Shown here: piece by piece, positions 14,041 through 22,827 of the stretch
How positions within the stretch are numbered: the stretch's first letter is position 1
Layout: the number at the start of each line of letters is the position of its first letter
Source: Escherichia coli
GTDB lineage: Bacteria > Pseudomonadota > Gammaproteobacteria > Enterobacterales > Enterobacteriaceae
NCBI RefSeq assembly: GCF_048403405.1
Contig: NZ_CP183129.1
Length of the DNA stretch: 64,000 nucleotides
Reading direction: 5' to 3' (one strand)
Translations under genes and position numbers: made by a program
The notes under the pieces: generated by a model
What the model was told of the DNA's origin: nothing
The model's database searches: none
The model's input: only the letters and a program-made list of their open reading frames with translations

Positions 14041-14102
14041 TGCGACGCTTACGCGTTTTATCATGCCTACGGGGACCTGACCGTAGGCCGGATAAGGCGT
14101 AC
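14041..14102. repeat. REP/PU palindromic unit, left half, split by IS insertion
   Basis: ccgtaggccggataaggcgtac is a PU-type sequence; its palindromic partner acgccgcatccggc resumes right after the IS at 15535. Confidence 0.6.
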
Positions 14103-14144
14103 TGAACTGCACCCCAAATGTTGGACATAATCTGACATCTGAAG

Positions 14145-14675
14145 GTGCAGTTTATGAAACATTCATTTGAAGTAAAAATTGCCGCTGTAAATCATTACCT
14201 GGCCGGTCATGCAGGCATCATTTCTACGGCAAAACTCTTTCAACTTTCTCACACCAGCCTCTCACACTGGATTAATCTTTTTCTTCTTCACGGTCCTCGG
14301 GCACTGGATTGCAGACACAGGCGTAGCTATTCTCCTGAAGATAAACTTTGCGTGGTTCTTTATGCTCTCGGGCATTCTGAGTCTCTACCCCGGGTAGCTG
14401 CCCGGTTTAACATTCCCAGCCACAACACGGTTAAAAACTGGATAAAAGGCTACCGCAAATCTGGTAATGAGGCCTTTATCAGGCGCAGGAAGGAGAAAAG
14501 CATGACCCGTTCTGATGATACCCATGAAAACGAAGCAAACATGACGCCGGAAGAGATGAAGAATGAGCTGCGTTATCTTCGCGCAGAAAATGCATATCTG
14601 AAAGCCATGCAGGAGCATCTCCTGGAAAAAAAGCGCCAGGAGCTGGAGAAAAAACGAAAGTCATCCGGAGCCTGA
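14145..14675 (+). CDS. IS3-family transposase OrfA (helix-turn-helix and leucine-zipper region)
   Basis: 176-aa ORF with the same architecture as IS150 InsJ but a different sequence. Confidence 0.85.
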   Translation: MQFMKHSFEVKIAAVNHYLAGHAGIISTAKLFQLSHTSLSHWINLFLLHGPRALDCRHRRSYSPEDKLCVVLYALGHSESLPRVAARFNIPSHNTVKNWIKGYRKSGNEAFIRRRKEKSMTRSDDTHENEANMTPEEMKNELRYLRAENAYLKAMQEHLLEKKRQELEKKRKSSGA

Positions 14676-14779
14676 GGTGCGGACACTGCCAGTCTGACCT
14701 GTTAAAGGCTGCAGGGCTGGCCAGAAGCACGCTGTACTACCAGCTGTCACTGCAGAAGGCTAAGGACAAGTATGCTGAT

Positions 14780-15502
14780 GTGAAACAGCTCATAGCCTCC
14801 ATCTTCCATGAACACCGGGGATGTTATGGGTACCGGCGGATCCATTGTGAGCTTCAGAAAAGAGGTCTTAAGTTCAGTGGCAAAACGGTGCGAAAACTGA
14901 TGCAACAGCTCGGCCTGAAGTCTCCTGTGCGCCTGAAGAAATACCGGTCTTACCGGGGAAATATGGGACTCGCTGCAGAAAATATCCTTCAGCGACAGTT
15001 CAAAGCGGAAGCTCCCTGTGAGAAATGGGTGACAGATATCACCGAATTCAGGGCTGGCGGACAAAAACTGTACCTGTCCCCGATACTTGATTTGTTTAAC
15101 GGGGAAATCGTGGCGTGGGAAACTGCCTGCAGGCCTACAGAGGAGCTGGTGAAGCGCATGTTAAATAAGGGGCTGGAAAGCCTTGCAGAAGGAGAAAAAC
15201 CGCTGCTCCACAGTGATCAAGGGTGGCATTACCGGATAAAAAGTTATCAGTCTGCCCTGGCAGACAAAGGGTTAGTGCAGAGCATGTCGCGCAAGGGCAA
15301 CTGCCTTGATAATGCGGTAATGGAGAATTTCTTTGGTCACCTGAAAGAAGAAATGTACTATCGCCGGGACTACAGAAGTGTAGAAGAGCTGGAAAATGCC
15401 GTTAACGAATACATAACTTACTGGAATCAAAAAAGAATAAAACTCAGTCTTGGGGGACTCAGTCCGGTAGAATACCGGACTGAGCATCAAAAAGCCGGTT
15501 AA
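14780..15502 (+). CDS. IS3-family transposase OrfB (DDE integrase domain); probably made as an OrfAB fusion by programmed -1 frameshift, so the true 5' end lies upstream near 14640
   Basis: 240-aa ORF from first ATG; reading frame is open upstream (..RSTLYYQLSLQKAKDKYADVKQL..); DDE-type motifs such as LHSDQGWHY. Confidence 0.85.
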   Translation: MKQLIASIFHEHRGCYGYRRIHCELQKRGLKFSGKTVRKLMQQLGLKSPVRLKKYRSYRGNMGLAAENILQRQFKAEAPCEKWVTDITEFRAGGQKLYLSPILDLFNGEIVAWETACRPTEELVKRMLNKGLESLAEGEKPLLHSDQGWHYRIKSYQSALADKGLVQSMSRKGNCLDNAVMENFFGHLKEEMYYRRDYRSVEELENAVNEYITYWNQKRIKLSLGGLSPVEYRTEHQKAG

Positions 15503-20116: not shown

Positions 20117-20220
20117 ATCAGCATACTTGTCCTTAGCCTTCTGCAGTGACAGCTGGTAGTACAGCGTGCTTCTGGCCAGCCCTGCAGCCTTTAACAGGTC
20201 AGACTGGCAGTGTCCGCACC

Positions 20221-20751
20221 TCAGGCTCCGGATGACTTTCGTTTTTTCTCCAGCTCCTGGCGCTTTTTTTCCAGGAGATGCTCCTGCATGGCTTTCAGAT
20301 ATGCATTTTCTGCGCGAAGATAACGCAGCTCATTCTTCATCTCTTCCGGCGTCATGTTTGCTTCGTTTTCATGGGTATCATCAGAACGGGTCATGCTTTT
20401 CTCCTTCCTGCGCCTGATAAAGGCCTCATTACCAGATTTGCGGTAGCCTTTTATCCAGTTTTTAACCGTGTTGTGGCTGGGAATGTTAAACCGGGCAGCT
20501 ACCCGGGGTAGAGACTCAGAATGCCCGAGAGCATAAAGAACCACGCAAAGTTTATCTTCAGGAGAATAGCTACGCCTGTGTCTGCAATCCAGTGCCCGAG
20601 GACCGTGAAGAAGAAAAAGATTAATCCAGTGTGAGAGGCTGGTGTGAGAAAGTTGAAAGAGTTTTGCCGTAGAAATGATGCCTGCATGACCGGCCAGGTA
20701 ATGATTTACAGCGGCAATTTTTACTTCAAATGAATGTTTCATAAACTGCAC
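20221..20751 (-). CDS. IS3-family transposase OrfA, copy 2
   Basis: 176-aa translation identical to 14145..14675. Confidence 0.85.
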   Translation of the reverse strand: MQFMKHSFEVKIAAVNHYLAGHAGIISTAKLFQLSHTSLSHWINLFLLHGPRALDCRHRRSYSPEDKLCVVLYALGHSESLPRVAARFNIPSHNTVKNWIKGYRKSGNEAFIRRRKEKSMTRSDDTHENEANMTPEEMKNELRYLRAENAYLKAMQEHLLEKKRQELEKKRKSSGA

Positions 20752-20856
20752 CTTCAGATGTCAGATTATGTCCAACATTTGGGGTGCAGTTCAGTTAAGC
20801 GTCGCATCAGGCAATGTGCACCCTACGGTGGATGCGGCGCGAGTGCCTTATCCAAC

Positions 20857-22827
20857 CTACGGATGGCAATGCTTTTCCTCATTCACCCAGATCCGCATTT
20901 CGCCTTCACCCCGGTTGGCCCAGCTAAACCACGGGATAAACGTTAGAGTTTGCGGCTGGCGTTTGGCTGGCGCGCTGTCGTAATGCCACAGCGGTTGCTG
21001 CTCTGGATTGCTCTGTTCATACCGGTAACCCGGAGCCTGGATTAAGATCTTATGGCGGAACAATCCCTTGCCTTCAAATGTCGTAAATGGCGCATCGGCG
21101 GGCAGCCACAGGTTATGCAGTGACTCGCCGTTGTCGGCCTGTTCCAGGCAATACACCAGCGGGCCGCGCTGAATCGCCACTTTTCCGGCGACGTGACGCA
21201 CCTGAGGGTTACCGTAAACGCGGCGTACCGGCATCGGCAAAGTCAGATTCAGCGTATCGCCCTCCTGCCATTCGCGGGTAATGTGCAAATACCCTTTACG
21301 AATATCCTGCCCGACCTCTTCCCCATTCAATATGATCTGCGGCTGTGTGCACCAGTCCGGCAGACGTAAAGCCAGCGTATGACGCACCGGCTGGGGCGAT
21401 TCAACCGCAATCGTCACCTGCTCCTGCCACGGATAGTTTCCGCTAACCCGCAGACGCAGCGTGCCATTTTCTACCGGCACTTCCATGCTGTTTCCTGCGT
21501 AGATGTTGATATACAACGCATCTTCACGCGGCGTGTAGAGATAATGACCAATCGAGGTTAGCACGCGGGCGATATTTGGCGGACAACAAGCGCAACCAAA
21601 CCAACGCTGGCGGATCGGCTTAACGTGATCGTAGATATGGTTGAATTTTAACGTTTTTGGATGCACTTCCAGCGGATTCACATAGAAGAAATGTTTGCCA
21701 TCCAGCGCCATGCCGCCGAGCACGGTGTTGTACAGTGCGCGCTCCATCACATCGGCATATTGACTGTCGCCTTCCATTTCCAGCATTCGCCGGGCGAACA
21801 TCATCAGGCCGATGGAAGCACAGCTTTCGGCGTATACCGTGTCATTCGGCAGATCGTAATCGCTGCTGAACGCTTCGCCGCTGCTTTGTGAGCCAATGCC
21901 GCCGGTAATATATAACTGACGCTGGGCCATATTGTTCCACAGCCGCAGGCAATCCTGACGCTTGCTTTCATCGTGACTTAAACGCGCCAGATGTGCGACG
22001 CCAGTCATCAGATATACAAAGCGTACTGCATGTCCGATGGCGGTTTGTTGCTGTGCGATGGGTAAATGCGCCTGGCTGTAGGCTTTATCTTTCACCATCC
22101 ACGCCGGGCCGTAGGTGTGCCAGTGCGAGGTCTGCCCGCGCTTTTCATATTCCTGGTCGTAATAGTGCGGTTGCGCACCACGCTGTTCGACAAAATAGTT
22201 CGCCAGCGCCAGGTAGCGCGGCTCTTCGGTCACTTCATACAGGCGCATTAGTGCCAGTTCAATTTCCGGGTGACCAGGATAACCGTGTAACTTACTTTCA
22301 CCTGGACCAAATACGCTGTCGATATGATCGGCCAGACGGCAAACCACTTCCAGCAAGCGCCGCTTGCCCGTGGCCTGGAAGAAGGCGACTCCGGCTTCAA
22401 TCAGATGACCGGCGCAGTAAAGTTCATGACACTCCGCCAGATTGCTCCAGCGTTCTTCGGGCGCTTTTACCGTAAAGTAAGTATTGAGATAGCCATCTTC
22501 GCACTGGGCGGAAGCGACCAGTTCGATTACCTCGTCAGCAGTTTTTTCCAGTTCGGCATCCGGCTTCTGGCACAGCGACCAGGCTACCGCTTCCAGCCAT
22601 TTGGCGACGTCGCTGTCCTGAAACACCATCCCGTAAAATTCACCGTCTTGCAGTCCTGCGGCAATGCGAAAGTTTTCAATCGCATGGCTGGGTTCCGCTT
22701 CTGGGATACGATCGTTCAAGGCATCCCACTGATAAGGAATCACCACGTCGCGGACCAGTTGTTGGTACTGACCGAGGAACGGATCGCTGACCGTCAGTTT
22801 ATGCAGATCGACTTCCGAAATGTTCAT
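20857..22827 (-). CDS. glycoside hydrolase family 127 (DUF1680, HypBA1-type beta-L-arabinofuranosidase-like), cytoplasmic
   Basis: about 656 aa; cysteine-rich signature WFGCACCPPNIARV typical of the HypBA1 family; no signal peptide; start taken at the third in-frame Met (MNISEVDL), true start uncertain. Confidence 0.75.
   Translation of the reverse strand: MNISEVDLHKLTVSDPFLGQYQQLVRDVVIPYQWDALNDRIPEAEPSHAIENFRIAAGLQDGEFYGMVFQDSDVAKWLEAVAWSLCQKPDAELEKTADEVIELVASAQCEDGYLNTYFTVKAPEERWSNLAECHELYCAGHLIEAGVAFFQATGKRRLLEVVCRLADHIDSVFGPGESKLHGYPGHPEIELALMRLYEVTEEPRYLALANYFVEQRGAQPHYYDQEYEKRGQTSHWHTYGPAWMVKDKAYSQAHLPIAQQQTAIGHAVRFVYLMTGVAHLARLSHDESKRQDCLRLWNNMAQRQLYITGGIGSQSSGEAFSSDYDLPNDTVYAESCASIGLMMFARRMLEMEGDSQYADVMERALYNTVLGGMALDGKHFFYVNPLEVHPKTLKFNHIYDHVKPIRQRWFGCACCPPNIARVLTSIGHYLYTPREDALYINIYAGNSMEVPVENGTLRLRVSGNYPWQEQVTIAVESPQPVRHTLALRLPDWCTQPQIILNGEEVGQDIRKGYLHITREWQEGDTLNLTLPMPVRRVYGNPQVRHVAGKVAIQRGPLVYCLEQADNGESLHNLWLPADAPFTTFEGKGLFRHKILIQAPGYRYEQSNPEQQPLWHYDSAPAKRQPQTLTFIPWFSWANRGEGEMRIWVNEEKHCHP

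Follow-up and report, generated by a model that had tools for sequence, protein, structure and literature searches.

Two IS1397 copies inserted in palindromic units bracket the yiaW–yiaT genes of an Escherichia coli genome, and the bracketed segment is inverted in close relatives

IS1397 is an Escherichia coli insertion sequence (IS) of the IS3 family, known from the work of Bachellier, Clement, Wilde, Hofnung and colleagues. For IS911, IS3 and IS2, transposition by copy-out-paste-in via a double-stranded circle is established, and its products are simple insertions with matched target duplications. Here we analyse a 64 000-nucleotide stretch of E. coli DNA (contig NZ_CP183129.1; hereafter the window), in which two IS1397 copies in opposite orientation, each lying in the loop of a palindromic unit (PU), bracket the genes yiaW, yiaV, yiaU and yiaT. 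Specificity of IS1397 for PU, or repetitive extragenic palindromic (REP), targets is reported in the secondary literature (PMC1525189, PMC3184786). REP/PU sequences also serve as targets for IS621 (IS110 family), ISKpn1, ISPpu9/ISPpu10 and ISPsy8 (PMC1525189). IS621 belongs to another family and inserts on the 3' side of its target, beyond the inverted repeats of the REP (PMC3184786), whereas the element in the window is an IS3-family DDE element that sits in the hairpin loop.

Chromosomal inversions by homologous recombination between inverted IS or prophage copies are known, for example, in E. coli O157:H7 and Shigella (PMC8743559, PMC8072062). They have in common with the present locus the identical inverted repeats, the occurrence of both isomers among relatives and the swapping of target duplications in one of them. 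They extend over tens of kilobases to megabases, whereas the inversion described here is limited to 3.8 kb of unique DNA, leaves the replication axis uncrossed and has a REP-targeting IS at its ends. The layout of the window also resembles that of Tn5 and Tn10, in which identical inverted IS arms enclose a block of genes; it differs from these transposons in that each IS has its own duplication, the genes are native and there is no sign of movement of the unit. IS1397, its choice of target and IS-mediated inversion are established biology. Only the locus is new: a small segment that occurs as two natural inversion isomers within a single E. coli clone.

The IS pair is real. Between positions 13000 and 22000 of the window there is a single long inverted repeat, with arms at 14101–15536 and 19360–20795 (1436 nt, 100% complementary) and a spacer of 3823 nt. 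The repeat search and the reading of the element ends agree with the initial annotation, which was made from the DNA letters and had described two IS3-family elements of 1432 bp in opposite orientation at the positions given in table 1. It had also proposed that the two copies be aligned to each other; they proved to be base-for-base identical over their 1432 bp. The repeat arms exceed the IS by 2 nt at each end because the target duplications, read in the orientation of the IS (TAC and TAAC), share their outer bases, and this is a coincidence. The 25-bp terminal inverted repeats start with TGAACTG and end with CAGTTCA; they are imperfect, as had been noted, the left and right repeats matching at 21 of 25 positions. 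The IS-end motif was found four times in the 64-kb window (0.08 expected), and always at an expected end.

The identification as IS1397 is supported. Both copies have the layout of IS1397 and the IS3 family, with two open reading frames (ORFs), an A AAA AAG frameshift site and TG...CA ends. The 449-amino acid fusion protein made at this heptamer is an exact GenBank/database protein (WP_115441016.1), and NCBI's name for the 90% cluster of that protein is 'IS3-like element IS1397 family transposase'. RefSeq gives the same name, with the note 'programmed frameshift', to the identical gene in the matching genomes. Programmed −1 frameshifting at A AAA AAG is predicted from this arrangement, which is that expected of an IS3-family element. 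The fusion protein scores 388 bits against the NCBIfam model NF033516 (IS3 family; cut-off 160), and its Pfam domains are HTH_28 (twice), HTH_21 (6e-17), rve (5e-21) and rve_2 (1e-20). The N-terminal helix-turn-helix, the DDE rve domain and the above-cut-off match to a hidden Markov model place it in the IS3 family. It was the name of the identical transposase and this 388-bit match that bore out the IS1397 assignment of the initial annotation. The length of about 1.43 kb, the imperfect terminal repeats of about 25 bp and the TG...CA ends are those of IS1397; all full-length annotated copies that were examined have 1432 bp, and some 1700 annotated copies share this length and the NCBI name. 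The PU/REP hairpin-loop insertion and the 3–4 bp duplications also agree, and in these respects no difference from IS1397 was found. A copy covering at least 80 per cent of the element is present in 1707 of 5426 complete E. coli genomes. The window copies are 100 per cent identical to those of the same clade and 97–99.7 per cent identical to copies elsewhere.

The target sites could be reconstructed exactly. PUs were defined as imperfect palindromes of about 35 nt lying outside genes, with arms GCC(G/T)GATAAG(G/A)CG...CG(C/T)CGCATC(C/A)GGC and a GTAG tail. The empty sites were predicted as the window sequence minus the IS and minus one copy of the duplication, which gives GTAGGCCGGATAAGGCGTACACGCCGCATCCGGCA for site 1 (copy 1) and GTAGGCCTGATAAGACGTGTTAAGCGTCGCATCAGGCA for site 2 (copy 2). 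Both are found without a mismatch in strain TUM1886; that of site 2 is also exact in GN02461 and TUM14771, and the uninterrupted PU of site 1 is identical in K-12. Judged by the consensus sequences, site 1 is a Y-type PU and site 2 a Z2-type PU. Each reconstructed site folds as a PU hairpin whose loop contains the duplicated bases (−12.3 kcal/mol, z −3.9 for site 1; −10.7 kcal/mol, z −5.4 for site 2). At both sites the arms match the PU arms exactly, and the hairpins lie well below the shuffled controls. Both sites are intergenic, between convergent or tandem gene ends. Reading of both ends of each copy gives a direct repeat of 3 bp (TAC) for copy 1 and of 4 bp (GTTA) for copy 2. These repeats, and the interruption of a PU-type palindrome by each copy, had been proposed in the initial annotation; its own counter-case, in which the flanks of related genomes would lack a PU, was checked, and the relatives carry the exact PU empty sites.

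Chance is excluded: the 64-kb window contains only three canonical PUs (three arms of each type), two of which hold IS copies, and the IS-end motif is confined to the ends of these copies. The targeting of PU loops extends to other genomic sites: all nine IS1397 copies examined at nine loci (the two of the window and seven elsewhere) are in PU loops, and eight of them have a clean target duplication of 3–4 bp. The PU that copy 1 splits at site 1 is the second in a two-PU bacterial interspersed mosaic element (BIME). The first PU of this BIME folds weakly (−5.4 kcal/mol, z −1.2); its second arm is degenerate in the window strain and better preserved in K-12.

Of the seven further copies, that of strain YZ3E2001 (NZ_CM135961.1), which belongs to a different lineage, occupies the same aldB–yiaW PU loop as copy 1. 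This copy (L005 3504–4935) has 11 mismatches, lies in the opposite orientation and is flanked by a duplication of the same three bases; it is an independent insertion. The yiaT gene of YZ3E2001 is truncated by a Tn10-like ISVsa5/tet(B) insertion (L005 7944–11179).

A search with the whole locus identified only six complete genomes that carry IS1397 here at approximately 100 per cent identity. They can be arranged with other strains according to the state of the locus. There is no IS at either site in TUM1886 and in most other E. coli. Strains GN02461 and TUM14771 have copy 1 only, site 2 being empty. Strains 4621 and TUM1226 have, like the window, both copies and the native gene order, and isolate 68 and MS 69-1 have both copies with the segment inverted. 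The duplications of different length, one for each copy, and the existence of genomes with one IS imply two separate insertions, copy 1 being the first. Two independent insertions into PUs, rather than a transposed composite element, had been postulated at the outset, and the matched duplications, native synteny, empty sites and copy-1-only genomes all point the same way. One single-nucleotide polymorphism (SNP) is private to the window, at position 17844 in yiaU (C in the window, T in all six genomes); the window thus represents a seventh genome of the same clone. GN02461 and TUM14771 are separated from the double-IS genomes by variants in the RHS region.

K-12 was of limited use as a reference for the empty locus. 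The comparison with it that had been suggested could be made at site 1, where the PU is intact, but not at site 2, because the region is absent: homology with K-12 stops 27 nt past the yiaT stop codon. Closer relatives were therefore taken as the empty-site reference. The statement that IS1397 is absent from K-12 holds for intact copies but not for fragments, as a 65-nt remnant of the right end is present.

This remnant lies between yhhI and yhhJ (NZ_CP010445.1, 4424042–4424106; L010 1501–1585) and corresponds to IS positions 1368–1432 with 95 per cent identity. It is found in K-12 and in about 1780 other genomes without an intact IS1397. In K-12 it comes directly after the ISEc1-family transposase gene yhhI and is followed by TAA and a right half of a Y-type PU, ACGCCTTATCCGGCCTA. 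It looks like an old PU insertion that was later truncated.

Another feature of the compared genomes is the RHS core gene (window approximately 2626–6756, minus strand), which contains almost all variable sites among the otherwise near-identical genomes. Such clustering suggests that the differences arose by recombination among RHS copies and not by point mutation.

In isolate 68 (Spain) and MS 69-1 (USA), everything from one IS to the other is inverted with respect to the flanks, giving the order GH127–IS–yiaW–yiaV–yiaU–yiaT–IS–aldB. The target duplications, written in the orientation of the IS, are matched in the window, 4621 and TUM1226 (TAC–IS–TAC and TAAC–IS–TAAC) and swapped in the two inverted genomes (TAAC–IS–TAC and TAC–IS–TAAC). 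The swapped duplications indicate recombination between the copies after both had inserted. The pair had been pointed out as a possible substrate for inversion of yiaWVUT, and two near-identical genomes thus carry the predicted isomer. Across about 87 kb (some 38 kb at the locus and a further 48.6 kb), all differences among the five double-IS genomes are private variants, from which it follows that the flip is recent. Most of these variants fall in repeat families (RHS, IS150, Ldr), and at no site do the two inverted genomes group together. The variant sites are compatible with one flip or with repeated flips. The junctions between flank and IS are the same in both isomers, which can be distinguished only by sequence spanning a whole IS.

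The aldB gene of isolate 68 (L013 26793–28330) is annotated as frameshifted, owing to a single-base deletion unique to this isolate. This is probably a long-read sequencing error and not a real pseudogene.

We consider it very probable that the locus was formed by two separate IS1397 insertions into PU loops, followed by recombination between the copies that inverted the segment in at least one relative. The first insertion would have entered the Y-type PU of the aldB–yiaW BIME with duplication of TAC, and the second the Z2-type PU downstream of yiaT with duplication of GTTA, both presumably by copy-out-paste-in via a circular intermediate, as expected from the IS3 family. The copies would thereby have come to lie in opposite orientation around the native yiaW–yiaV–yiaU–yiaT genes, and the window, with its native order and matched duplications, would represent the direct product. 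The identical 1432-bp inverted repeats could then serve as recombination substrate, and in at least one close relative recombination would have flipped the 3.8-kb segment (6.7 kb with the IS copies). This flip most likely came about by RecA-dependent homologous recombination. Directly observed are the anatomy, which nothing contradicts, the two empty sites, the intermediate with one IS, and the two isomers with their duplications.

Some points limit this reconstruction. The copies are identical and the crossover is unmappable, so the recombination mechanism is deduced. The inverted isomers are known from two public assemblies, and the identity of the element rests on NCBI naming and on its behaviour. 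The ancestry of the window itself may include an even number of flips. For this reason the initial annotation, in arguing from the matched duplications against a later inversion, was right only as to the net state of the window, flipping being known in the clade. Swapped flanks in the window assembly, which it had named as evidence that would speak against it, were looked for; both duplications of the window are matched.

Copy 2 might instead descend from copy 1 by intramolecular replicative transposition, in which case the swapped isomer would be primary and the window form the result of a later flip. Such transposition is known for IS26 and Tn3-type elements. The swapped structure, flank–TAC–IS–TAAC–inverted segment–GTA–IS–GTTA–flank, is exactly what it predicts, the one-IS ancestral state exists, and the SNP data give no order of the two isomers. 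We nevertheless hold this origin to be very unlikely: an IS3-family element would be expected, from established knowledge of copy-out-paste-in, to produce simple insertions with matched duplications, and such duplications flank all but one of the nine IS1397 copies mentioned above. A homologous flip would moreover still be required for the window form, so that the replicative route adds an unusual step and removes none. That the whole IS–yiaWVUT–IS unit is a composite transposon which brought or moved the genes can be practically dismissed, in spite of the two identical inverted copies around a gene block that it shares with Tn5 and Tn10. The genes occupy the position and order that they have in K-12 and in the genomes without IS, and so are native and not cargo; each IS has a separate duplication (3 bp and 4 bp) and none flanks the unit as a whole, the outer flanks TAC and GTTA differing in both sequence and length. 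A one-IS intermediate exists, and none of the 5426 genomes has the unit at another locus (only six genomes reach a query coverage of at least 80%, and in each of them the match is at this locus).

The inverted arrangement in isolate 68 and MS 69-1 could also be an assembly artefact of the 1.4-kb inverted repeat, since repeats longer than short reads can be misjoined, and the frameshift in aldB of isolate 68 is typical of an uncorrected long-read assembly. The same inverted structure was obtained, however, in two independent assemblies from different laboratories and countries, and the native structure in two other assemblies and the window. The whole structure measures only 6.7 kb and is easily spanned by ordinary long reads, whose use for isolate 68 is implied by its indel errors. 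With two independent assemblies for each isomer and a structure of this size, assembly error is unlikely, and we give it a small probability. We attach still less weight to the idea that the insertions and the flip are regulatory, the orientation acting as an on/off or tuning switch for the yiaWVUT, aldB and GH127 operons. REP/BIME elements do affect mRNA stability and termination, copy 1 splits a BIME PU between aldB and yiaW, and both isomers occur among near-identical strains. Yet the sequence inward of each IS is unaffected by the flip, and on the outer side each IS faces the 3' end of an inward-pointing gene, so that the two isomers do not differ in local layout. Sites resembling promoters or terminators are no more frequent than in shuffled sequence, and neither an invertase nor other dedicated machinery is present.

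An invertase-driven switch was considered and rejected. Such a switch would have short inverted repeats, usually around a promoter, that a dedicated site-specific recombinase recognises. Here the repeats are the whole 1432-bp IS, the DDE transposase is the only recombinase-like gene, and the annotation of the 47-kb neighbourhood lists no invertase gene.

The insertions and the flip are probably neutral, to judge from the layout of the locus. Genes aldB and GH127 both point toward the segment, and each IS keeps an outer gene 3' end next to it in either isomer; it is these inward-pointing 3' ends that make the flip look neutral. The yiaU regulator gene moves in the flip together with an upstream motif shared by yiaW and yiaT (see below). 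Scans for promoters and terminators near the two insertions did not exceed the shuffled expectation, and the sequence lends no support to an effect on expression, which the initial annotation had thought possible. It is improbable, though a little less so than the artefact and the switch discussed above, that flipping is frequent, that both isomers occur in single cultures and that orientation has a measurable effect, which would make this an accidental, IS-built phase-variable locus in one clone. Were this so, the effect might arise, for example, when transcription that enters from aldB or from the GH127 operon reads through the IS, or when yiaWV and yiaT change their direction of replication.

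The locus provides a clean natural series that leads from empty sites to one insertion, to two insertions and to an inversion with swapped duplications. It exemplifies the way in which intergenic hairpins, harmless in themselves, become substrates for rearrangement through a REP-targeting IS. In this clone the locus may be assembled, or may truly exist, in two orientations, which matters for synteny-based comparisons and for structural-variant calling. Beyond good annotation the import is small, and the locus opens no new question on IS1397, REP elements or the yia genes.

The features of the locus are listed in table 1. Gene names are those that RefSeq gives for strain 4621, whose sequence differs here by one SNP (window coordinate = L003 coordinate + 9599). 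Copy 1 follows the aldB stop codon after 99 bp and precedes yiaW by 457 bp; copy 2 follows the yiaT stop codon after 70 bp, and a distance of 63 bp separates it from the 3' end of the convergent GH127 gene. The order aldB–yiaW–yiaV–yiaU–yiaT is the same in K-12, and the enclosed genes are therefore native.

Table 1. Features of the IS1397–yiaWVUT–IS1397 locus in the window. IRL and IRR, left and right terminal inverted repeats.
Feature	Position	Strand	Remarks
First PU of the BIME downstream of aldB	14035–14070		Z-type arms; GCCTGATGCGACG at 14035–14047; untouched by the insertion
Left half of site-1 PU (Y-type) and left TAC	14083–14102	+	GTAGGCCGGATAAGGCG; TAC at 14100–14102
IS1397 copy 1	14103–15534	+	1432 bp; IRL 14103–14127, IRR 15510–15534
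orfA	14154–14675	+	173 amino acids
OrfAB fusion	14154–15502	+	449 amino acids; orfB open in the −1 frame up to 15502
Slippery heptamer A AAA AAG	14627–14633	+	zero frame
Right TAC and right half of site-1 PU	15535–15552	+	TAC at 15535–15537; ACGCCGCATCCGGCA
Segment between the IS copies	15538–19357		inverted in two related genomes
Small hypothetical ORF	15665–15808	−	
yiaW	15991–16314	+	
yiaV	16320–17456	+	
yiaU	17453–18427	−	LysR regulator gene
yiaT	18551–19291	+	
Left half of site-2 PU (Z2-type) and left GTTA	19340–19361	+	GTAGGCCTGATAAGACGT; GTTA at 19358–19361
IS1397 copy 2	19362–20793	−	1432 bp; same sequence as copy 1, opposite orientation
OrfAB of copy 2	20742 down to 19394	−	
Right GTTA and right half of site-2 PU	20794–20813	+	GTTA at 20794–20797; AGCGTCGCATCAGGCA

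Within the enclosed segment, an AT-rich stretch of 52 nt upstream of yiaW (15884–15935) resembles the sequence 18439–18490 in the spacer between the divergent yiaU and yiaT genes. The two match at 37 of 52 positions (maximum 30 in 300 shuffles), and the shared stretch ends with TTGCACCG(C/G)AT. It could be a common operator for the LysR regulator YiaU, a candidate suggested by the sequence similarity. An Rfam scan of the IS–yia region found no RNA family.

Elsewhere in the window, a sok antitoxin RNA (Rfam RF01794, 83 bits) was detected at 53747–53901 on the plus strand, at the upstream edge of an IS150 copy (approximately 53873–55242), and hokA (55344–55496) lies about 100 bp past this copy. 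This sok–IS150–hokA arrangement appears to be the IS150-associated hokA/sokA locus of K-12. A full-length cspA thermoregulator (Rfam, 501 bits) is located at 55628–56055 on the minus strand. The cold-shock gene downstream of it is called 'cspE' in RefSeq annotations of identical genomes; this name looks wrong, as the position beside hokA and yiaG and the leader indicate cspA.

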